From Actinomycetota bacterium (GTDB lineage: Bacteria > Actinomycetota > CADDZG01 > JAHWKV01), in contig JBPCIX010000013.1 of the NCBI GenBank assembly GCA_051005875.1, forward strand, positions 7,252 to 71,251: a DNA stretch of 64,000 nt, read 5' to 3'. The notes beneath the pieces were generated by a model that did not search any database, was not told the DNA's origin, and saw only the letters and a list, made by a program, of their open reading frames with translations. Of the stretch, positions 5,301-45,747 are shown piece by piece. Positions within the stretch are counted from its first letter, which is position 1; every line of letters begins with the position of its first letter. The position numbers were made by a program, and so were the translations under genes.

Positions 5301-7442
5301 ATGGTGACAATGGCAACCGATACGGCAGAGGCAAACCCAACCGAGGCAGCTAAGGCTTCGCCTTTCCGCGAGTTCCCCCTTGCCCGCATCCGCAACATCG
5401 GCATCATGGCCCACATTGACGCCGGCAAGACCACCACAACCGAACGAATCCTCTATTACACCGGCAGGACCTACAAGATCGGTGAAGTTCACGAGGGCTC
5501 GGCCGTTATGGACTGGATGGCCCAAGAGCAAGAGCGTGGTATCACCATCACCTCGGCCGCCACCACCACTCAGTGGAAGGGCGATTGGATCAACATCATC
5601 GACACTCCCGGCCACGTTGACTTCACGGTCGAAGTCGAGCGCTCACTCAGGGTCCTAGACGGCGCGGTTGCTGTTTTCGACGCAGTCTCAGGCGTGGAAC
5701 CGCAAACCGAAACCGTCTGGCGCCAGGCCGACAGGTACCACGTGCCACGCATCTGTTTCATCAACAAGATGGACCGTCTGGGCGCCGATTTCTACAGGTC
5801 CGTCGAAATGATCAAAGAGCGTTTGGGTGGCCACCCACTGCCGGTCCAGATTCCGTGGGGAGCCGAGGGCGACTTCCACGGAGTAATCGACCTGCTTGCA
5901 ATGAAGGGTCGGTACTGGACCTCCGAAAAAGGCGAGGAGTGGGAGGACCGCGACATCCCCGAAGAGTTGATGGAAGAGGCCACTCACTGGCGGCATGAAC
6001 TTTACGAGGCTCTCGCTGAGTTCGATGAGGAAGTAATGGAGGCATACGTAGGCGGCGGCGAGGCTTCGGCCGAACACCTTAAGATGGCCCTTCGCAAAGC
6101 CACTTTGGCCAACCAGGCCCAGCCGGTTCTTTGCGGCAGCGCCTTTAAGAACAAGGGCGTCCAGCCGCTTCTCGATGCCGTTGTTGATTTCCTGCCCTCG
6201 CCCGCAGATGTTCCCCCTGTCGTCGGTGAGCACCCCCGTACAGGCGAAGAGGTCATCCGCAAGCCCGAAGATTTCGAGCCTTTCAGCGCCCTTGCCTTCA
6301 AGATAATGTCCGATCCACACGTCGGCCGTATCACTTACATTCGAGTGTATTCAGGCACATTAAAGAGCGGCGGCGCCATGCTGAACGCCACCCGCGACCG
6401 CAAAGAACGAGCCGGGCGGCTGCTGCAAATGCACGCTAACCATCGCGAGGACAAAGAGCAGACCATGACCGGCGACATCGTGGCCGTGGTTGGTCTGAAG
6501 CAAACGTTTACGGGCGACACCCTTTGCGACCCGGACAATCCGGTTCGCCTGGAATCCCCCACTTTTGCCCAGCCCGTCATTTCCATGGCAATCGAGCCCA
6601 AAACGAAGATGGACCAGGACCGCCTCGCCACTGCGCTGCAGCGTCTTTCTGAAGAGGACCCAACCTTCATTATCCACTCAGACAAAGAAACCGGCCAGAC
6701 AATCATCGCCGGAATGGGCGAATTGCATCTCGACGTTTTGATAGATCGCATGACCAGGGAATTCAACGTCGACGCAAACGTAGGCAAGCCCCAGGTGGCA
6801 TATCGTGAGACGATCACCAAGACTGTCACCAAGCACGTCACCCGCTACATCAAGCAAACCGGCGGCAAGGGCCAATTCGGCCACGTCGAAATAAATCTGG
6901 AGCCTACGGGCCCCGGCGGCGGCTACGAATTCGTCAACAAGATCAAAGGCGGCTCTATCCCGAGCGAATTCATCCCCTCGGTCGACGAAGGAATGCAAGA
7001 AGCCATGGCCTCGGGGGTGCTGGCCGGCTACCCGCTCGAGGACCTCCGGGTAACCCTTACCGACGGATCCGCTCACGACGTCGACTCTTCAGAAATGTCG
7101 TTCAAGATCACCGGCTCCATCGCCCTGAAAGAGGCAGCCCGCAAGGCATCGCCGGTGCTGCTCGAGCCGATCATGGATGTTGAGGTTGTGACCCCTCAAG
7201 ACTTTATGGGCGAAGTAATGGGCGACTTGAACTCACGCCGCGGCCGTATCGAAAAGATGGAGAACCGGGGAGTTACCCAGGTAATCCGGGCGCAAGTTCC
7301 CCTGGCGCAAATGTTTGGCTACTCGACGGATCTCCGCAGCAACACCCAGGGCCGGGCTACCTACACAATGCAGTTTCACTCCTACCAACAAGTTCCTCGC
7401 TCACTTGCAGAGGAAATCATTAAGAAAATTCGAGGAGAGTAA
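5301..7442 (+). CDS. fusA: Elongation factor G
   Basis: [37 protein letters not shown]; start could instead be the ATG at 5310. Confidence 0.99.
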
Positions 7443-38274: not shown

Positions 38275-39441
38275 TTGGAAGTCGGAATAGGGATTGGAAA
38301 GGCAGCCCGTAAGGCATACGGCTTTGACGACATCGCCATCGTGCCTTCCAGGCGAACGAGGGACCCCGACGACGTAGATATCTCTTGGGAAGTCGATGCC
38401 TACCGCTTCGACCTGCCGGTTCTTGCGGCCGCCATGGACGCGGTCGTATCGCCGGCAACAGCCGGTCAGATAGGCGGCCTGGGGGGCCTGGCGGTGTTGA
38501 ACCTTGAAGGCTTGCAAACACGCTATGCCGACCCAGATTCCGTTCTCGCAGAGATTGCAGAGTTGCCCGAGGACAAGGCCACGGCAAGGATGCAAGAGGT
38601 CTACAGCGAGCCCATTAAGCCAGAGCTGATCGGGCAGCGGATTCAGGAGATAAAGGCCTTCGGAGTCACTGCCGCGGCAAGTCTCACGCCGCAAAAGGTC
38701 GAGGAATATTCGAAGATCGTCCTGGAGGCCGAGCTGGACATTTTTGTCATCCAGGGCACCGTGGTCTCGGCGGAGCATGTATCCACCCAGCTGGAACCAC
38801 TCAACCTAAAACGCTTCATCGCCAATTTTGATCTCCCTGTAATCGTCGGCGGCTCGGCTTCTTACCAGCCTGTTCTGCACTTGATGCGAACCGGGGCAAT
38901 CGGAGTTCTCGTTGGAGTAGGCCCCGGCGCCGCTTGCACCTCGCGCCAGGTTCTCGGGATTGGAGTCCCACAGGCAACTGCTATTGCCGATGCTGCGGCG
39001 GCGCGGATGCGGCATCTCGATGAAACCGGCCGTTACGTTCACGTGATCGCCGACGGAGGAATGCGAACCGGCGGCGACATCGCCAAAGCAATCGTTTGCG
39101 GCGCCGACGCGGTGATGATCGGCTCTCCGTTGGCCCGCGCCCACGAAGCGCCGGGCCGCGGGTACCACTGGGGAATGGCGACCTTCCATGCGGCTTTACC
39201 TCGGGGCGTTAGGGTCGCTTCACAACCGCTGGGTACCTTGAAGGAGATCCTGCTTGGCCCGACCAGCGTCAACGATGGGACCGTGAATCTGTTTGGGGCC
39301 CTAAAGAATTCAATGGCAACCTGCGGCTATCAGTCGGTCAAGGACTTCCAAAAAGCCGAAGTCGTGATAGCCCCTTCGATCAAGACCGAAGGAAAGCACC
39401 TACAACAACAGCAAGGTCTCGGGCAAGGCAGCAGGGGTTAG
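38275..39441 (+). CDS. guaB3: GuaB3-family IMP dehydrogenase-related protein
   Basis: [35 protein letters not shown] (catalytic Cys), IADGG; no CBS pair. Confidence 0.92.
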
Positions 39442-39448
39442 GGCACTT

Positions 39449-40216
39449 CTAACTTCCGACTGAAACCCTAAGGGCGCCCCATTCTGTGAGGCCCTCGAGA
39501 GTGTCGCGCAGCTCTGCTTCATCGAGACCCGAGGTCTCAACCATCTCGGGGAAACTCCTTTGACCGTCGGCTAGTTCAAGCAGAGCCTCCATCGCAGCCG
39601 TACTGTGGGCCACGATCACTCTTGCGTGAGGCGAGCGCGCAACGAGCAATCGAACGGGAGTCTGGGGCGCCATCGGGATTTGCGCCGGGGACTTCAAAAT
39701 CTCAGCCAGCACAACCGTTATGTCGTATTGCAAATCGAGCAGCCGAGTACCTTGCGCTAGCTCAAAAACCTCCCCCGCAGCGTTGGCCGCTTCGGCCGTG
39801 TCTCGCCAAACACGGGGGCCGGACTCAGCGATCATCATTGCCTGCTCGTAGTTGAGCAAATCATCGATGTAGGGGATTCGAGACTTCGCCTGGGTAGTCC
39901 CCACGTATTCCACGACCAACTCTGAAACCTGCTCCGCGCTATCCCGGCTGCCAAGAGTGAGCCTCGAGAGCAAATCGTGAAAGCCGGGACTGGCAAGGAT
40001 CGCCTCGGGGCGGCGGGCTGTTGCGGACGCTAACGCTAAAGAGTACTTAAAGAAGTGAACTATCCGCTCATAGTAGAAATGGCGAGCAAGGAAGCGAGCG
40101 AACTTTTCAACCCTTGCGGGTTCGGCTAAATTGCGGCTTAGCCACTCCGATGAGGTCCGGAATTTTGCGTCGGCAAGCGCTGTTATGACCAGATCTTGCA
40201 GATCACGATCGCTCAC
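39449..40216 (-). CDS. Putative MNIO partner protein with C-terminal winged-helix/RRE-like segment
   Basis: GTGA overlap with the DUF692 gene; DLLNYE motif; C-terminal LLELADGQRSFPEM...LEGLTEWGAL. Confidence 0.6.
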   Translation of the reverse strand: MSDRDLQDLVITALADAKFRTSSEWLSRNLAEPARVEKFARFLARHFYYERIVHFFKYSLALASATARRPEAILASPGFHDLLSRLTLGSRDSAEQVSELVVEYVGTTQAKSRIPYIDDLLNYEQAMMIAESGPRVWRDTAEAANAAGEVFELAQGTRLLDLQYDITVVLAEILKSPAQIPMAPQTPVRLLVARSPHARVIVAHSTAAMEALLELADGQRSFPEMVETSGLDEAELRDTLEGLTEWGALRVSVGS

Positions 40217-41025
40217 AGAGTGGCGCGGATGCGCTCCACCGTGTTGAAGATGGAGTCCGCCGTCAAAGCCGGCGAGAACGCATCAAACGTGACCGCTCTG
40301 GCCTTGGGGCAGCGGGCCAAAGCGTGCTTCATGAACTGAAGCATTTCGTCATCGGGCTCGGCCGGCGCGATCCACGGCCCTTCGAGATCTTCGTCTTCTT
40401 CCACGCCGGCGACATGAATTTCCCAAACGTGGTCGAGGGGAAACTGCTCCAGCCATTCCTCGGCGGGGATCTTTTTGTAGTGGGCCTGGAGCCAAAGGTG
40501 GGGCAAGTCCAGCAAGAACCCCACCCCGGTGGCCTGAAAAAAGCGCTTCAACCAAACGGGCTCGGGCATCTGGCTGGTTTTTACGTCGAAAAACCCGGGA
40601 ATGTTTTCCATCACCAAAGGCTGGTCTAGGCGCGATGCCAATTCTTTGGCATTAGCGACAAATCGACCCAGGAACTCCTCCGTATACAAAGGCGGGAACA
40701 CGTAGTTCAAGCTATGAACACCATCGGCCGTGTGCAGGCATTGAAAATGCTCCGCGACCCAGGGGCTGCGATACATCTCGGCCAAAGAACGCGATCTTTC
40801 AATTGATCGCTCATCAAAGGGCTCCGACAATTGTCCGAGGTAGTCATGCAATAGCAAGGTGAATTTGTCTCGGATTGGCTCGAAGTACGGGTCGTCGCCA
40901 CGGGGCGGGTCGGCCATAGCCAGGTGATCTATCTGAACCGGGGCGTTCAGAAGCTCCAACCCAAGGTGGGGGTTGTAGAACCCCCCAACCATGATCGAGC
41001 CGGGTTGTTGGGCGGCCTTGGTCAT
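40213..41025 (-). CDS. DUF692 family multinuclear non-heme iron oxidase (MNIO; MbnB/TglH/ChrH-like), divergent
   Basis: Ordered motifs LLH, PWVAEH, LVMENIP, FLLDLPH, EIHVAG; 270 aa from the ATG at 41025 (ATGA overlap with the AKR stop). Confidence 0.82.
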   Translation of the reverse strand: MTKAAQQPGSIMVGGFYNPHLGLELLNAPVQIDHLAMADPPRGDDPYFEPIRDKFTLLLHDYLGQLSEPFDERSIERSRSLAEMYRSPWVAEHFQCLHTADGVHSLNYVFPPLYTEEFLGRFVANAKELASRLDQPLVMENIPGFFDVKTSQMPEPVWLKRFFQATGVGFLLDLPHLWLQAHYKKIPAEEWLEQFPLDHVWEIHVAGVEEDEDLEGPWIAPAEPDDEMLQFMKHALARCPKARAVTFDAFSPALTADSIFNTVERIRATL

Positions 41026-42110
41026 GGTGTCACCATTCCTTCGGCGGCCAGTTGATCCACGAATTGTCTGACCTGCGCCCCCATCAGGTGCGTGTCCTCG
41101 GCCTCCGACCATTCGGCGGCTATCGAATCGTAGGAGGTGCGCCCGTCGAGGCGGTCGACGATGAACTGCTCGCGCCCACCCCATTCGGCGGCGGCCTCGC
41201 GAGCAGCTTGCGTAGCGGCGGCCGGTTTGAACACCTCGGCAACCGCCTCATTCACGGCTGCGATTTCTTCGCCCTCCAAGGGTTTGTTTTTGGCCTCCAG
41301 GTTTTCCTCCAGCTGTTTTGGGGTTCGCGCCCCTGCCAAAACCACGCTAACACCGGGCTGGTTTAAAGCCCAGCCAATTGCGAGTGCACTGACGGTGCGG
41401 CCCCCCTTCGCCGCGATTTGCCTCAGCCGATCGAGTACGGCTACCCGGCGGGCCAATTCGGGGCCCTTGAACCACCAGATCCCGTGGCGGTGGTCGTCGG
41501 GAGCAAGATCGGACACCGATTCCTGAGAGAAGGTGTCGGTCAACACACCGGATGCAAGGGACCGGTAGGCAAGGAACGAGAGCTTGTGCTTCCGGCAGAG
41601 GGGGGTCTCCTTTTGCTCCACCTCGCGGTCGAACAGGTTGTAAGCCGCCTGGTAGGTGCTTAGCGGCGCAAATTCGAGAGCCCTGGAAAGTTGCTTGCCG
41701 GTTGCGTTGCAAAGACCGATGGCGAGAGCCTTGCCTTCTTCTTTTAGCCTGGAGAGTTCCTGGAGTGAGCGCTCGAAATTATCCCCGACTTCGTGCAGCT
41801 GCAAAAGGTCCACATACTCGGTATCAAGCTTGCGAAGTGACACTTCGAGGCTTGCCCGCGGATCGTCTCGGGGACCGACCTTGGTTGCCAGAACAATCTT
41901 GGCCCGCTGCTGCTTGAGCACCCGGCCCAACAATTCCTCGGACTCGCCGTAGGTAGGAGCCGTATCGAAAACAACAACGCCGCGCTCAGCGGCGAGTTGG
42001 ACCGTCTTTTCGCGCGTCGTCCAATCTGCGCCCGGACCCCAGTCCTCGCCGCCAACTCCCCAAGCGCCGAACCCAATCTGGGCCGGACAGGACTCCCAAG
42101 TGAACGCCAT
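41022..42110 (-). CDS. Aldo/keto reductase with C-terminal PqqD/RRE-like extension
   Basis: GFGAW, FDTAPTYG, ATKVG, LLQLH (D/Y/K/H tetrad), GARTPKQLEEN; extra ~60-aa tail IVDRLDGRTSYDSIA...VRQFVDQLAAEGMV. Confidence 0.88.
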   Translation of the reverse strand: MAFTWESCPAQIGFGAWGVGGEDWGPGADWTTREKTVQLAAERGVVVFDTAPTYGESEELLGRVLKQQRAKIVLATKVGPRDDPRASLEVSLRKLDTEYVDLLQLHEVGDNFERSLQELSRLKEEGKALAIGLCNATGKQLSRALEFAPLSTYQAAYNLFDREVEQKETPLCRKHKLSFLAYRSLASGVLTDTFSQESVSDLAPDDHRHGIWWFKGPELARRVAVLDRLRQIAAKGGRTVSALAIGWALNQPGVSVVLAGARTPKQLEENLEAKNKPLEGEEIAAVNEAVAEVFKPAAATQAAREAAAEWGGREQFIVDRLDGRTSYDSIAAEWSEAEDTHLMGAQVRQFVDQLAAEGMVTP

Positions 42111-42150
42111 TTCTACCGACTCGGCGTTGGCATGAATTTGGTCATGTTTT

Positions 42151-42543
42151 CTAAACCTTAATCACCTGAACGAAGGACCCGTCCAGTCCGTCGTAATCGC
42201 CATCCTGAGCAACCACGGGAACTCCCAGCGCCATAGCCGTCGCAGCAATCCAGGAATCGTTTACAGGCATCCGTCGGTTGTTGTCTCGCAGCCAGAGCCG
42301 GAGTTTCGCCCACGACTCGGACACTGCTTCATCCACAGGCGTTGGATCCAATCTCAATGCCTCGATTAGAGTCGCCAACCGGCGCTCACGGAGCTCGACG
42401 GTTTCGGCGGCGAGAACACCTGCGCGCAATTCTCCGATCGTTATAGCCGACACCGCAATTTCGTCCGGAAGCGCGTCGGCGCGAAGGGGGCGTCCCGTTT
42501 CCCCAGCAATGAAGACCGATGTATCGGCCAGGCCGCGACTCAA
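42151..42543 (-). CDS. vapC: VapC-type PIN domain toxin
   Basis: LADTSVFIA, ITIGEL, NDSWIAATA, QDGDY. Confidence 0.92.
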   Translation of the reverse strand: MSRGLADTSVFIAGETGRPLRADALPDEIAVSAITIGELRAGVLAAETVELRERRLATLIEALRLDPTPVDEAVSESWAKLRLWLRDNNRRMPVNDSWIAATAMALGVPVVAQDGDYDGLDGSFVQVIKV

Positions 42544-42791
42544 AAGTCCAAATCGTCGGTCGTATCAGGGGCGAGTTTGCGGAGTTCGTTTCCAAGGGCC
42601 GTGTCGGCCTGTTTGGTTCCAATGCGGTGAACAAACTCGGCGCGGCTGATCCACCGAGGGCGGCGTCCAAGCGGACTCAGCAATGCCACAGGCCTGCCAT
42701 CGACCCTAATGGTGATATTTTCGCCGGCCTCTGCCCTGCTTAAAAGTGCGCGGGTGTTGTTGCGCAAATCTCGTGAAGCCGCCTCTCCCAT
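42540..42791 (-). CDS. Phd/YefM-family antitoxin
   Basis: SRDLRNNTRALLSRAEAGENITIRVDGRPVALL; TTGA overlap with vapC; ATG at 42791. Confidence 0.88.
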   Translation of the reverse strand: MGEAASRDLRNNTRALLSRAEAGENITIRVDGRPVALLSPLGRRPRWISRAEFVHRIGTKQADTALGNELRKLAPDTTDDLDF

Positions 42792-42792
42792 T

Positions 42793-42823
42793 ACACAACT
42801 GTAGCATGTCGCTACAGTTGTGT
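42793..42823. promoter_or_regulatory. Palindromic operator overlapping the extended -10 of the TA pair
   Basis: ACACAACTGTAGC-atgtc-GCTACAGTTGTGT, perfect 13-bp arms; the minus strand reads TGcTACAGT-N6-ATG. Confidence 0.75.
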
Positions 42824-42851
42824 GCAATTTCGTGAGTTCCCGGAAAGGGAA

Positions 42852-42877
42852 GAGCCCGAACCTAAAGGTTCGGGCTC
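42852..42877 (-). terminator. Stem-loop downstream of the repeat peptide gene
   Basis: GAGCCCGAACC-4 nt-GGTTCGGGCTC, followed on the minus strand by TTCCCTTT (weak U tract). Confidence 0.65.
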
Positions 42878-42895
42878 CTGCCCATCCTTACTTCT

Positions 42896-43078
42896 CTAGG
42901 CGTGACACGTGGGCTGCAATTCACTTGCCTCGACCACTGATGGCCTATGACATGTGGGCTGCAATTCATCGGCCTCAACAATCTGGGGCCGGTGACACGT
43001 GGGGTGCAGCTGGCTTGCCTCTACGAGACGGGGCCGGTGACACCCTGGTACGAGTTGCTCACTTTCGACGATCCTCAT
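42896..43078 (-). CDS. Putative RiPP precursor peptide: four ~15-aa repeats each containing Cys-His
   Basis: MRIVESEQLVPGCHRP/RLVEASQLHPTCHRP/QIVEADELQPTCHRP/SVVEASELQPTCHA; strong SD AAGGAGGTGA; repeats differ at synonymous positions (CAC/CAT, CGG/AGG, CCC/CCA, ACG/ACA). Confidence 0.85.
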   Translation of the reverse strand: MRIVESEQLVPGCHRPRLVEASQLHPTCHRPQIVEADELQPTCHRPSVVEASELQPTCHA

Positions 43079-43199
43079 CCAATCACCTCCTTTAAACTGA
43101 TGGAAGTTAAGCTGTAACCCTACAACAAACCCAAAACTACGTTGCCCGCGAATAGGCTCGGGCGGACGGTTCGTCGCATTCGCTTTCGAGGTCTATTCT

Positions 43200-44165
43200 T
43201 TGCCCATTCCAACCGTTCCAAACATTCAAACGACGACGCTGTTGACCGAGGAAACACTCGCGGAACAATTCCTTGCCGGTATCGCCCGGCGGAGCCTGGA
43301 CGAGAAGTTCTTCTATTGGTTCCCATTGTCGGTTCGCGCATGGCTGGAGCTTTGCAGCGATGGCGACTATCGAAACTTTGTGCGCTCTCGGTCGCTTATC
43401 GAAAGCTCCGCAAAGGAATTGGCTGCCAAAATCCCTCCCAACCAAATCGATGTCTTCAGCATAGGGTGCGGCCAAGGCGATAAGGACGGAATACTGCTAC
43501 AGGCGCTTCGCGAAAGTGTGCAGACGGTAAATTATCTTCCGACCGATGCAAGCCAGTCCCTTCTGGAAATCGCCTGCGCTGGAGCTCTTAAGGCAGGATT
43601 TGCGGTCCGCGGGTTCAAGGCCGATTTCACCGACCCGGCTCACTTGCAGGCCATCGCTCACGAGGGGGACTCGTCCGAACGCCTTTTCATGATGATCGGC
43701 AACACCATGGGAGCGGCGGATCCCTTGTCGACCGCAAAGGATCTGCGCCGGATGCTTCGGCCGGGAGACCTGCTGCTGGTTGACGGCGAGATCTATTCGC
43801 CGGGAACCATCGCCGGCTACGACAACCCAATTAACCGGCGCTTTGCCTGGGCACCCTTATATTCGGTCGGAATTCGGGACGATCAGGGCGAAGTCGCCTT
43901 CCGCGATGAGATCGACGACCGCCTGCCGGGACTTCATCTTGTATCCAAGCATTTCTCGGCTGCGCAGCCTGTGGTTGCCCTGACCGGTGGGAAATCCATG
44001 AAGATCGAAGCAGGGCAACGTTTGGAAATGAACCATTCCTACAAATATTCCCTCGAGGCCTTCGACGCAGTTCTGGATCAGGCCGGCCTTGAGCCTAAAT
44101 GGTCGGCCCAAAGCGAAGACGGCAAGTTCGTAATGACGTTGGCCGAGGCCCGTAACCCTAATTAG
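43200..44165 (+). CDS. EgtD-like (Methyltransf_33) SAM-dependent methyltransferase, atypical
   Basis: [43 protein letters not shown] match the EgtD-family layout. Confidence 0.8.
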
Positions 44166-44184: not shown

Positions 44185-45747
44185 GTGGAACTCAATGAGG
44201 AATTTGACCGAATACTTGTAGTTGATTTTGGTGCCCAGTATTCGCGACTTATCGCCCGTCGGGTTCGTGAGTGCCACGTCTTCTCAGAGATTGTCCCCCA
44301 CTCGATAACACCCGAGGAAGCCAAGCAGCTTCGCCCAAAGGGGATCATTTTCTCGGGGGGTCCAAAAAGCGTCCACCAGGAAGGCGCCCCCAGGGCGGAT
44401 CCGGAACTTTTCAACCTTGGCGTACCGGTTTTGGGAATCTGCTACGGCCACCAGCTGATGGCTTCGAGTCTCGGCGGCAAGGTGGCGAAGGGCTCGTCAG
44501 GCGAGTTCGGCCGCACAAGCCTGACCGCTGAACAGGGGCTCTTGTTCAACGACCTGGGTCTTGCTCAGGACGTTTGGATGAGCCATACCGACGCGGTAAC
44601 TGAGGCTCCTGAGGGGTTTCGCACTGTAGCGAAGACAGAGTCTTCCCCGGTTGCGGCTATGGAGGACATTCAGCGGGGCCTCTACGGTGTGCAGTTTCAT
44701 CCTGAGGTTGCCCACACGCCGTGCGGAGTCGATTTGCTCAAGAACTTCCTCTACAACGCCTGCGATTGCACGCCGTCATGGACCGCAGCGGGAGTGATCG
44801 AGACGGCGGTTGAGAAGATTCGGCGGCAGGTTGGTGACGCCTCGGTGATTTGCGGGCTCTCCGGAGGCGTTGACTCCGCCGTCGCGGCGGCGCTCGTCCA
44901 TAAAGCCATCGGACACCGGCTGACCTGCATCTTCGTGGACCACGGAATGATGAGGGCAGGCGAAGCCGAAGAAGTGGTCGAGGCCTTTCAGCGACACCTG
45001 AAAATTGATCTCATTCATTCGAAGTCCCAGGATCGGTTCATCGACAAGCTGGCCGGCGTAGACGACCCGGAGCAAAAGCGGAAAATTATCGGCACCGAGT
45101 TCATCCGTGTCTTCGAAGAAATCGCATCGCAGGTTGCGAGCGAGGGATCCGAGCCCCTTCGTTATTTGGTTCAAGGAACCCTGTACCCAGATGTGATCGA
45201 ATCCGGTGGAATTGGGAAAGTCGCGGCGGTAATCAAAAGTCACCACAATGTCGGCGGACTGCCCGACGATATGAAGCTCGAGCTCGTGGAGCCCTTGAGG
45301 GATCTTTTCAAGGATGAGGTTCGGCGTGTCGGCGAAGAATTGGGCCTTCCTGAGGACATAGTGTGGCGCCAGCCTTTCCCGGGGCCCGGCCTCGCCGTAA
45401 GAATCATCGGCGAGGTGACCCGAGAGCGCCTGGAGCTTGTTCGGGCCGCAGATGCCATTGTGGTCGAGGAAATCAAAAGGGCCGGGCTCTACAGACAAAT
45501 TTGGCAAACCTTCGCAGTCTTGCTCCCCGTCCGCAGTGTCGGCGTGATGGGGGATGAGAGAACCTACGGCCACCCTGTGATCGTTAGAGCAGTCACATCT
45601 GAAGACGCCATGACCGCCGATTGGGCCAAACTCGACCACGGTCTGCTGGAAAGAATCTCAAGCCGAATCATCGCCGAGGTTCCCGGCATTAACCGGGTCG
45701 CCTACGACATCTCTTCGAAGCCGCCGGCGACCATCGAGTGGGAATAG
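44185..45747 (+). CDS. guaA: GMP synthase (glutamine-hydrolysing)
   Basis: [43 protein letters not shown]. Confidence 0.99.

Follow-up and report, generated by a model that had tools for sequence, protein, structure and literature searches.

A block of genes between guaB3 and guaA, within the 64,000-nt stretch of an Actinomycetota contig (JBPCIX010000013.1) analysed here and termed the window, appears to be a horizontally spread, five-gene biosynthetic cassette. It is of the type that employs an oxidative enzyme dependent on multinuclear non-heme iron (MNIO, the DUF692 family) and it resembles the gene sets for peptides that are synthesised on the ribosome and modified after translation (RiPPs). 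Its members are a short peptide made of Cys-His repeats, an aldo-keto reductase (AKR) extended by a C-terminal winged helix, the MNIO itself, a TglI-like partner protein and a methyltransferase, dependent on S-adenosylmethionine (SAM), of the EgtD/EasF family. That the cassette is a real peptide-modifying pathway with the Cys-His peptide as its substrate is very likely, and it is likely, with somewhat less assurance, that the Cys residues are what the MNIO acts on. The cassette is probably an undescribed pathway by which a ribosomal peptide is turned into a sulfur- and histidine-based product. The genes, domains and start/stop overlaps on which the original prediction for this block was built are all confirmed by open reading frame (ORF) listing, hidden Markov model scans and reading of the sequence: ATGA joins the AKR and MNIO genes, and GTGA the MNIO and partner genes, the start codon of the latter being GTG.

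The recurrence of the gene set is far beyond chance. A scan seeded with the MNIO and confined to one genome per species gave 112 relatives, of which 80 loci were kept, and a scan of metagenomes seeded with the methyltransferase gave at least 434, of which 80 were again kept, the counts from the latter being restricted to loci with enough flank. The 80 MNIO loci are 59–77% identical and come mostly from metagenome-assembled genomes (MAGs) of soil Gemmatimonadales, with a few from Actinomycetota and from Terriglobales/Acidobacteriales. In nearly all of them tblastn with the window proteins finds the methyltransferase gene divergent from a peptide-AKR-MNIO-partner series, the order of the window. 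The partner is matched in 76 of the 80, the AKR and the peptide in 73 each and the methyltransferase in 71, with almost all of the misses at contig ends. Around the methyltransferase in metagenomes, a CH-repeat peptide is found in 65/67 loci, the AKR in 50/51, the MNIO in 44/44 and the partner in 38/38. Homologous enzyme sets are, as had been anticipated, essentially always beside a CH-repeat peptide, and judged by these sequence matches the peptide, MNIO, TglI-like partner and EgtD-like methyltransferase always travel together, the AKR-winged-helix protein nearly always doing so. Among 60 relatives of the window genome, a single close MNIO homologue is present, in G004 of the same family (78% identity), and three further relatives carry unrelated MNIO types at 25–29% identity. 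[Statements on G004 and G216 rest on unpublished genomes, and the use of G009, G021, G022, G027, G138 and G149 is confined to tallies or to the part of an outgroup.]

The two metagenome loci in which the peptide is missed differ in kind. L107 does have a peptide, one containing an N, and L172 is truly without the gene: its methyltransferase, AKR, MNIO and partner are present and a gap of about 100 nt (about 6880–7010) takes the place of the peptide. Elsewhere L069, which looks truncated, has just a 99-aa AKR fragment, with no peptide or methyltransferase match in the 1.4 kb upstream. Both L172 and L069 may be decaying copies.

The peptide gene (42896–43078, minus strand) is an ORF for a putative precursor or scaffold peptide of 60 aa arranged as four tandem 15-aa units that end in P[G/T]CH. 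Its anatomy was compared over 81 sources, the 80 MNIO-seeded loci and the window. At least two P[TSA]CH units in one reading frame are found in 74 of these; the remaining seven give no tblastn match, and in them the cassette begins at or near the start of the locus. Two units is the common number (64 sources), with three units in 6 and four in 4, and units follow one another at a 15-residue period in 78 of 88 intervals. The consensus of the unit is x-[I/V]-[V/I]-E-[T/A/M]-x-E-L-x-P-[T/S]-C-H. Its Pro, Cys and His are kept in 160/160 units, a Glu at −9 in 155 and a Glu at −6 in 151; the linker between units is variable (RP, nothing or xNFK), and past the last His there is one small residue, or none in Terriglobales. 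Translation starts just one or two residues ahead of the first unit, the window peptide beginning MRIVESEQ, so that the peptide has neither a distinct leader nor a signal peptide, the absence of the latter having been rightly predicted. An ordinary leader-plus-core RiPP precursor is ruled out by a peptide that consists entirely of repeats. The peptide is strongly conserved and can be aligned with homologues from three phyla, and within the window gene three DNA repeats at 45-nt spacing are 73% identical with the motif kept. It matches no Pfam or NCBIfam family, and the best scores in a protein atlas search (0.84–0.85, to unnamed clusters) are below the meaningful level.

Expression signals flank the peptide gene on both sides. 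Four nucleotides before its ATG is the ribosome-binding site AAGGAGGTGA (43083–43092, minus strand), a near-perfect Shine-Dalgarno sequence, and 3′ of the gene RNA folding gives a stem-loop (42842–42887, minus strand) followed by UUCCCUUUCC. The stem-loop has a folding energy of −33.9 kcal/mol and a z score of −4.1, with 0/200 shuffles its equal, and together with UUCCCUUUCC it is likely to be a terminator or attenuator. It is absent from the output of a consensus scan whose counts are at shuffle level (8 terminators against 6.1 expected, 2 promoters against 1.8). In the closest relative, L008, a GC hairpin and a U-run are also located between peptide and AKR; the 83-nt intergenic region there, folded as a whole, is not better than shuffles (z −0.89). 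No RNA sequencing run is among those listed as containing the stretch; one DNA run, possibly from the source sample, contains it in full, and the others contain small parts of it.

A sceptic could hold that the short ORF is not a substrate at all, being instead either a mini-protein that binds metal through its Cys and His without being modified or an upstream ORF with a regulatory function, while the enzymes act on another metabolite, or that mere synteny is being seen. Modification of the peptide is indeed a prediction from the gene set. However, the linkage of the peptide to the enzymes is kept in three phyla despite rearrangements and inserted genes, only 1/67 methyltransferase-seeded loci (L172) is without the peptide gene, that gene is equipped with a strong ribosome-binding site and a hairpin of its own, and the family to which the MNIO partner is matched by fold, that of TglI, presents peptides. 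A non-substrate role for the ORF is very improbable.

The window MNIO (270 aa; 40213–41025, minus strand) is a clear member of DUF692, as had been predicted. It matches PF05114 with 89.3 bits against a cut-off of 25 (88.9 in a scan of the genome), and is the sole PF05114 gene of that genome, a 1.8-Mb MAG which is 89% complete. The family alignment has 74% mean column identity and its invariant residues are H60, H93, E140, D173, H176, H204, D211, D213 and D248. Five columns, H60, H93, E140(N141), D173 and H204, match identical residues in TglH and 3bww and are invariant in 32/32 members; this His/His/Glu/Asp/His set presumably provides the iron ligands. The best solved relative is TglH (8hci_D, E 9.6e-12), followed by 3bww and MbnB (E 4.2e-4). 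In a FastTree phylogeny, support values not being considered, the MNIO clade is tight and sits on a long branch apart from other MNIO types. Scores against the NCBIfam equivalogs are 89.7 of 400 for ApyH (NF050151), 83.9 of 310 for BufB (NF050167) and 42.5 of 360 for HvfB, below each cut-off by a factor given as at least 4. MbnB (TIGR04159) gives no match to the window MNIO at E up to 0.1, and L087 scores 24.7 of 325 against it. For the Terriglobales MNIO the best profile is BufB, with 99.8 bits.

The partner (255 aa; 39449–40216, minus strand) is recognised by its fold. NCBIfam gives weak matches to ApyI (NF050149; 22.4 bits, cut-off 200) and HvfC (22.3 bits). Foldseek with an AlphaFold2 model (predicted local distance difference test score, pLDDT, 91.4) finds TglI (8hi7_A) over the full length at E 1.3e-6, then 8hci_A at 1.2e-5 and NGO1945/DUF2063 (3dee) at 3.2e-5. 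The last ~60 residues (~190–250) form a predicted winged helix; a profile of them compared with PDB sequences gave weak Lrp/AsnC-type helix-turn-helix matches only. On this modelled fold the protein is a TglI/DUF2063-type MNIO partner, which upholds the role first assigned to it.

The family of the MNIO brings in the chief competitor to a released product, a modified peptide that serves as a metallophore. Each [T/S]-Cys would be converted to a 5-thiooxazole or an oxazolone-thioamide, like those of bufferins, oxazolins and methanobactin, the His imidazole would be a further ligand, two or more units would together chelate Cu(I) or another soft metal, and the AKR and methyltransferase would tailor the peptide. 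Most of the Cys-acting MNIOs on record make copper-binding groups of this kind (PMC12452194 among others); BufB is the second-best NCBIfam profile for the window MNIO and the best for that of Terriglobales; every peptide has the unit at least in duplicate; and MFS and EamA exporters are nearby in Gemmatimonadales. Yet the peptide lacks the Sec signal peptide that, according to PMC12452194, most MNIO metallophore precursors possess. Moreover the neighbourhoods that were annotated show no genes for DoxX, copper or TonB, all equivalog cut-offs are missed widely, the nearest solved pair is TglHI and not MbnBC, and no role is left for a strictly linked EgtD-family methyltransferase whose carboxylate site is intact (see below). 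A metallophore is, on balance, somewhat unlikely.

The AKR gene (41022–42110, minus strand) encodes two domains. Residues ~10–292 are the AKR proper (PF00248, 187.4 bits), and D49, Y54, K77 and H106, which we take to be the catalytic Asp-Tyr-Lys-His tetrad, are invariant in 33/33 sequences. Solved AKRs in the PDB align to residues 10–292 only, and beyond them residues ~293–362 (DNA 41025–41243) are modelled as a winged helix with pLDDT 89. This tail is conserved at W21, G22, R24, E25, L32, D33, G34, A42, W45, A56, Q57 and D63 (numbering of the tail). The original prediction had this protein as a fusion of an AKR with a RiPP recognition element (RRE); the conserved winged helix and the kept tetrad stand, while the likeness of the tail to PqqD or an RRE stays below curated or decisive thresholds. 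PqqD (PF05402) scores 15.5 bits at residues 316–360 against a cut-off of 23.4 (E 0.022). The top Foldseek matches are the RRE-bearing heterocyclases TruD and LynD at E 0.3–0.8, with none at E up to 0.001. In VIA comparison, where Z below 8 is not decisive, the Z scores are 7.3 for PqqD 3g2b, 6.5 for lasso B1, 6.1 for TbiB1 and 5.6 for the PbtF RRE, among generic winged helices. A predicted complex of the domain with the peptide scored 0.00, which with no controls is not evidence either way. From its model, an RRE-like winged helix is a plausible description of the tail.

By its sequence the AKR looks active, and its step is accessory since in five loci (L048, L074 and L085–L087) it is missing and the peptide is directly before the MNIO.

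For the methyltransferase (321 aa; 43200–44165, plus strand, divergent from the peptide), the description as EgtD-like but atypical is sustained. It scores 82.4 bits against PF10017 (Methyltransf_33; cut-off 23) and is the only Methyltransf_33 gene in the genome. Against the EgtD profile TIGR03438 it has 64.7 bits where the cut-off is 290.9 and true EgtDs of relatives score 335–366, though hhalign with six such EgtDs gives a probability of 98.65% over 274 columns. It shares with EgtD the fold, the family, a conserved SAM-binding region and the residues that bind carboxylate. In Mycobacterium tuberculosis EgtD, as set out in PMC8593015, Tyr56, Tyr206 and Ser284 bind the carboxylate of the substrate and Asn166 its alpha-amine. 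The three carboxylate binders align to Y57, Y207 and S280 of the cassette enzyme, and Tyr39 to its Y39, all invariant in 30/30 sequences. In contrast Asn166 is replaced by Ala172, and of the imidazole-pocket residues Glu282 is replaced by Asn278 and Thr213 by Asn212, the Thr213 segment being two residues shorter and reduced to an invariant Asn-Arg. From these alignments the active site still looks suited to a substrate whose amino-acid carboxylate is free, with the acceptor end and side-chain pocket changed. Membership of the EgtD/EasF family together with the kept carboxylate binders would make that substrate free and amino-acid-like. In the methyltransferase-seeded scan it is strictly linked to the MNIO cassette and not to egtABCE.

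Canonical EgtD (TIGR03438 above cut-off) is anticorrelated with the cassette. It is present in 14/19 genomes of the window's family, with one further copy cut by a contig end, and in 21/26 genomes of its order; G000 (the window's genome) and G004, both of which carry the cassette, are not among these. Of 151 genomes sampled from the Gemmatimonadales-level order, 66 have EgtD and six have the cassette MNIO, with EgtD in 0/6 of the latter. A further 13 cassette genomes reached through their loci are also without it, so that overall the figure is 0/21. EgtB (TIGR03440) was not found in the window's 89%-complete genome and is above cut-off in 0/5 cassette Gemmatimonadales; EanB was not searched. 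A canonical ergothioneine operon is rejected for the window, EgtB not being found and the methyltransferase being far below the EgtD cut-off. [Counted as genomes with a match, canonical EgtD is in 16/19, 6/6 and 1/1 for the three families of the window's order, and in 0/34 for the other sampled family of the class.]

The reading preferred here, of a small molecule made on a peptide scaffold and then released, would run as follows. The peptide would be a string of 2–4 self-contained units and not a leader-plus-core precursor. Within each unit, [IV][VI]E-x-x-E-L-x-P would be the handle to which the partner and the AKR attach through their winged helices, and [T/S]-C-H the reactive end. The MNIO/partner pair would bind the Cys thiolate at its iron cluster and, with O2, oxidise the Cys beta-carbon or sulfur. 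To our knowledge, all Cys-acting MNIOs oxidise the Cys beta-carbon or sulfur via a thiolate on the iron cluster. The invariant neighbouring His would take part in the product, and the AKR, with NAD(P)H, would reduce a carbonyl on the peptide-bound intermediate as an accessory step. Hydrolases, encoded in the cassette in some Gemmatimonadota and housekeeping elsewhere, would release the modified Cys/His moiety. The methyltransferase, which has no peptide-binding domain and an intact carboxylate site, would act after release on a small compound, one derived from His and with a free carboxylate. What results would be a small, methylated sulfur/imidazole compound, located in the cytoplasm and serving a redox or a metal-buffering function. 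In favour of this reading are the co-occurrence of the genes, the leaderless series of units, TglHI as the nearest solved pair, the invariant AKR tetrad, the kept carboxylate binders of the methyltransferase, the quaternary-amine importer and in-operon MetX-like hydrolases of Gemmatimonadota loci, and the lack of canonical EgtD in carriers. That the product is such a released molecule rather than a modified peptide is put forward as a tentative possibility.

Several points weigh against it. Every peptide has at least two units (74/74), a rule better explained by a metal-binding peptide that needs two ligand pairs than by independent, disposable units. In the literature surveyed, the majority of Cys-acting MNIOs that have been characterised form heterocycles which bind metal and are retained in the peptide. 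The methyltransferase is without the EgtD alpha-amine binder and its side-chain (imidazole) pocket differs; the AKR tail does not reach the thresholds for a PqqD/RRE assignment. The anticorrelation with EgtD comes from related, incomplete MAGs that represent ~4–5 independent lineages, with kinship uncorrected. Finally, the window has neither hydrolase nor transporter, and such links, being found only within Gemmatimonadota, could be lineage synteny.

The peptide could also be kept, with its Cys and His cross-linked or rearranged, for a purpose that is neither metal acquisition nor supply of a small molecule, such as a signal, an antibiotic or a redox function. The chemistry of MNIOs is very diverse, examples in the literature including ortho-tyrosine, nitrile, homocitrulline hydroxylation and backbone rearrangement, and the cassette clade is distant from all named equivalogs. 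This is nevertheless an unlikely outcome: there is no leader/core division, leader peptidase or dedicated peptide exporter, conservation across phyla is extreme where antibiotics usually diversify, and the active-site features of the methyltransferase point to a free carboxylate substrate.

The boldest reading would have the cassette as a peptide-templated route to a thiohistidine betaine (ergothioneine, an isomer or an analogue) that replaces the canonical EgtD/EgtB pathway. The mononuclear sulfoxide synthases EgtB and OvoA couple Cys sulfur to imidazole using free substrates. By analogy with them, a four-electron oxidation by the MNIO would join the sulfur of Cys to the imidazole of the His next to it, and elimination would then leave the sulfur on His together with a dehydroalanine- or pyruvoyl-type carbonyl. 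The AKR would reduce that carbonyl, hydrolases would free the thio-His and the EgtD-like methyltransferase would methylate it. The scheme is chemically coherent and decidedly unlikely.

Of the systems to which the cassette can be compared, the pearlin pathway of Pseudomonas syringae is the nearest. There TglHI acts on a C-terminal Cys added to a scaffold peptide by a tRNA-dependent ligase, the small molecule 3-thiaglutamate is released and a protease regenerates the scaffold. Among solved structures TglH is closest to the MNIO in sequence and TglI closest to its partner in fold, and both systems have an MNIO with a winged-helix partner for a Cys on a ribosomal scaffold. The cassette differs in that its Cys is encoded, internal, always before a His and repeated 2–4 times, and in having no gene for a PEARL-type ligase, carboxymethyl-transferase or protease; its MNIO is only ~25–29% identical to other MNIO types. 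A short ribosomal peptide, as it would be in the cassette, is the throw-away scaffold for a small redox molecule in the synthesis of pyrroloquinoline quinone (PQQ) and of mycofactocin, and among RRE matches to the AKR tail a PqqD-like winged helix ranks highest (Z 7.3, below the decisive level). Both pathways rely on radical-SAM enzymes, on cores present in one copy and on a peptidase of their own, whereas the cassette has an MNIO, repeated units and its RRE-like domain fused to an AKR.

With ApyHI, of the aminopyruvatide pathway, the link is that ApyH and ApyI are the best NCBIfam profiles for the MNIO and partner. ApyH acts on a C-terminal Asp, according to the part of the literature covered, but the cassette peptide has none, P450 and B12-radical SAM genes are absent and both scores are below cut-off. 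Bufferin, oxazolin and methanobactin systems have in common with the cassette an MNIO and a DUF2063-type partner that act on Cys in ribosomal peptides, and some precursors have repeated Cys motifs (EGKCG; PMC12452194). The cassette, in contrast, is without signal peptide and DoxX, has the motif P[T/S]CH and scores far below the cut-offs; an AKR-winged-helix fusion and an EgtD-like methyltransferase are not reported for any of these systems in the texts covered. As far as sequence comparison goes, each of the named families fails at least one defining feature in the cassette.

That the combination of genes would prove unfamiliar has also held, no description of the cluster type being found in a literature search of openly available main texts. 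In these, no description turned up of an MNIO combined with an AKR, ergothioneine, EgtD or Gemmatimonad*, the matches of words being confined to unrelated reviews on plant flavonoids (MNIO with AKR) and on edible fungi (EgtD), and no link of DUF692 with ergothioneine, ovothiol or hercynine was among the matches listed. The main text of a survey of the MNIO landscape (PMC12452194) is silent on Gemmatimonad*, histidine, methyltransferase, aldo- and EgtD, and that of an MNIO sequence similarity network study (PMC12257519) on aldo-, EgtD and Acidobacteri*; the supplements of either may list the cluster.

No protease or transporter had been seen at the locus, and for the window this is correct; in Gemmatimonadota, though, the neighbours of the cassette include an ABC importer of the betaine type, transporters of the MFS and EamA kinds and alpha/beta hydrolases. 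The importer is next to the methyltransferase gene, with the MFS and EamA genes following. Among the 80 genome loci, matches number 59 for its ATPase, 56 for its permease and 53 for its OpuAC component, with 49 for MFS and 37 for EamA. Its binding protein belongs to the OpuBC/OpuCC/EgtUC group of quaternary-amine binders and scores 173–187 bits against choline/carnitine binders and 170 bits against the ergothioneine binder EgtUC, scores so similar that the match is not specific. L076 has the importer in a rearranged, fused form. In L024 and L029 OpuA-type transporter genes are on the opposite side of the cassette, not next to the methyltransferase, so that the link to a transporter survives at least one rearrangement within Gemmatimonadales.

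Other genes occur inside or near the cassette in subsets of the 80 loci. A MetX-like alpha/beta hydrolase, which NCBIfam places in PRK06489 (‘hypothetical protein’) at 488 bits where the cut-off is 305, is found in 27, in 12 of them between AKR and MNIO (L055, L057, L058, L060, L064, L065, L068, L070, L072, L075, L083 and L051) and in the other 15 a few kb downstream of the partner. It is a candidate for a releasing or acyl-transfer enzyme of the pathway. An LssY_C protein, without an NCBIfam match, is encoded between MNIO and partner in 25 loci; one example, of 400 aa, is at L021:8783–9985 on the plus strand (PF14067, 139.7 bits). An ArsC/Spx-like protein is present in 30 loci and a VirJ-like hydrolase in 4. 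The window, like the loci of Actinomycetota and Terriglobales, has none of these extra genes (hydrolases, LssY_C, ArsC/Spx-like), which may therefore be lineage-specific.

Between the peptide hairpin and the AKR gene of the window there is a VapBC toxin–antitoxin pair, which parts the precursor from its enzymes. The VapC toxin (42151–42543, minus strand; PIN domain, 54.2 bits) and the Phd/YefM-like antitoxin in the VapB position (42540–42827, minus strand; PhdYeFM 17.3 bits, and 20.3 bits against TIGR01552, just below its cut-off of 20.8) are encoded by genes that overlap at 42540–42543. Neither has a match in the 80 genome loci or the 80 metagenome loci. The pair had been noted among the genes of the block; VapBC is ruled out as a pathway member by its absence from all 160 other loci. 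Because it is lacking in 160/160 related loci, the pair is, on the sequence comparison, a recent insertion unrelated to the cassette and unique to the window. The cassette enzymes may now be read from the toxin–antitoxin promoter.

The block as a whole is itself an insertion. Its left border is the guaB3-like gene (38275–39441, plus strand), 77–85% identical to its orthologue in 20 relatives, and its right border is guaA, for GMP synthase (44185–45747, plus strand). By tblastn, guaA is directly after guaB3 in 5/11 relatives' loci without the cassette (G003, G005, G006, G011 and G023), an adjacency that identifies the 4.7-kb block as inserted. Base composition has no island signature, GC being 0.54–0.64 throughout. 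In the MNIO tree, built as above, the four Actinomycetota sequences, including that of the window, are nested inside Gemmatimonadales with Terriglobales basal, and this nesting suggests that the cassette was transferred into Actinomycetota. A metagenome contig of 1619 nt (L155) has a four-unit peptide 97% identical to that of the window and the same methyltransferase-guaA junction, by which a near relative of the window organism is present in another metagenome record. The guaB3 orthologue of relative G002 (G002:C3:31441-32595; L190) is reported with one in-frame TGA.

Few sources of new peptide chemistry are growing as fast as the MNIOs. The clade to which this cassette belongs is large, with its 112 relatives among one-per-species genomes and at least 434 metagenome stretches, and it is tightly conserved across phyla. 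For its combination of a leaderless tandem P[T/S]CH motif, an AKR-winged-helix protein and an EgtD-family methyltransferase, no curated family or paper was found. Very likely the cassette would bring to light a reaction of an MNIO with a Cys-His pair that is new. If its product is a small thiol/imidazole betaine, there would be a new biosynthetic logic for ergothioneine-like antioxidants, and only 3-thiaglutamate would precede that product as a small molecule which an MNIO makes on a peptide scaffold, with a bearing on redox and metal homeostasis in the abundant Gemmatimonadota of soil.

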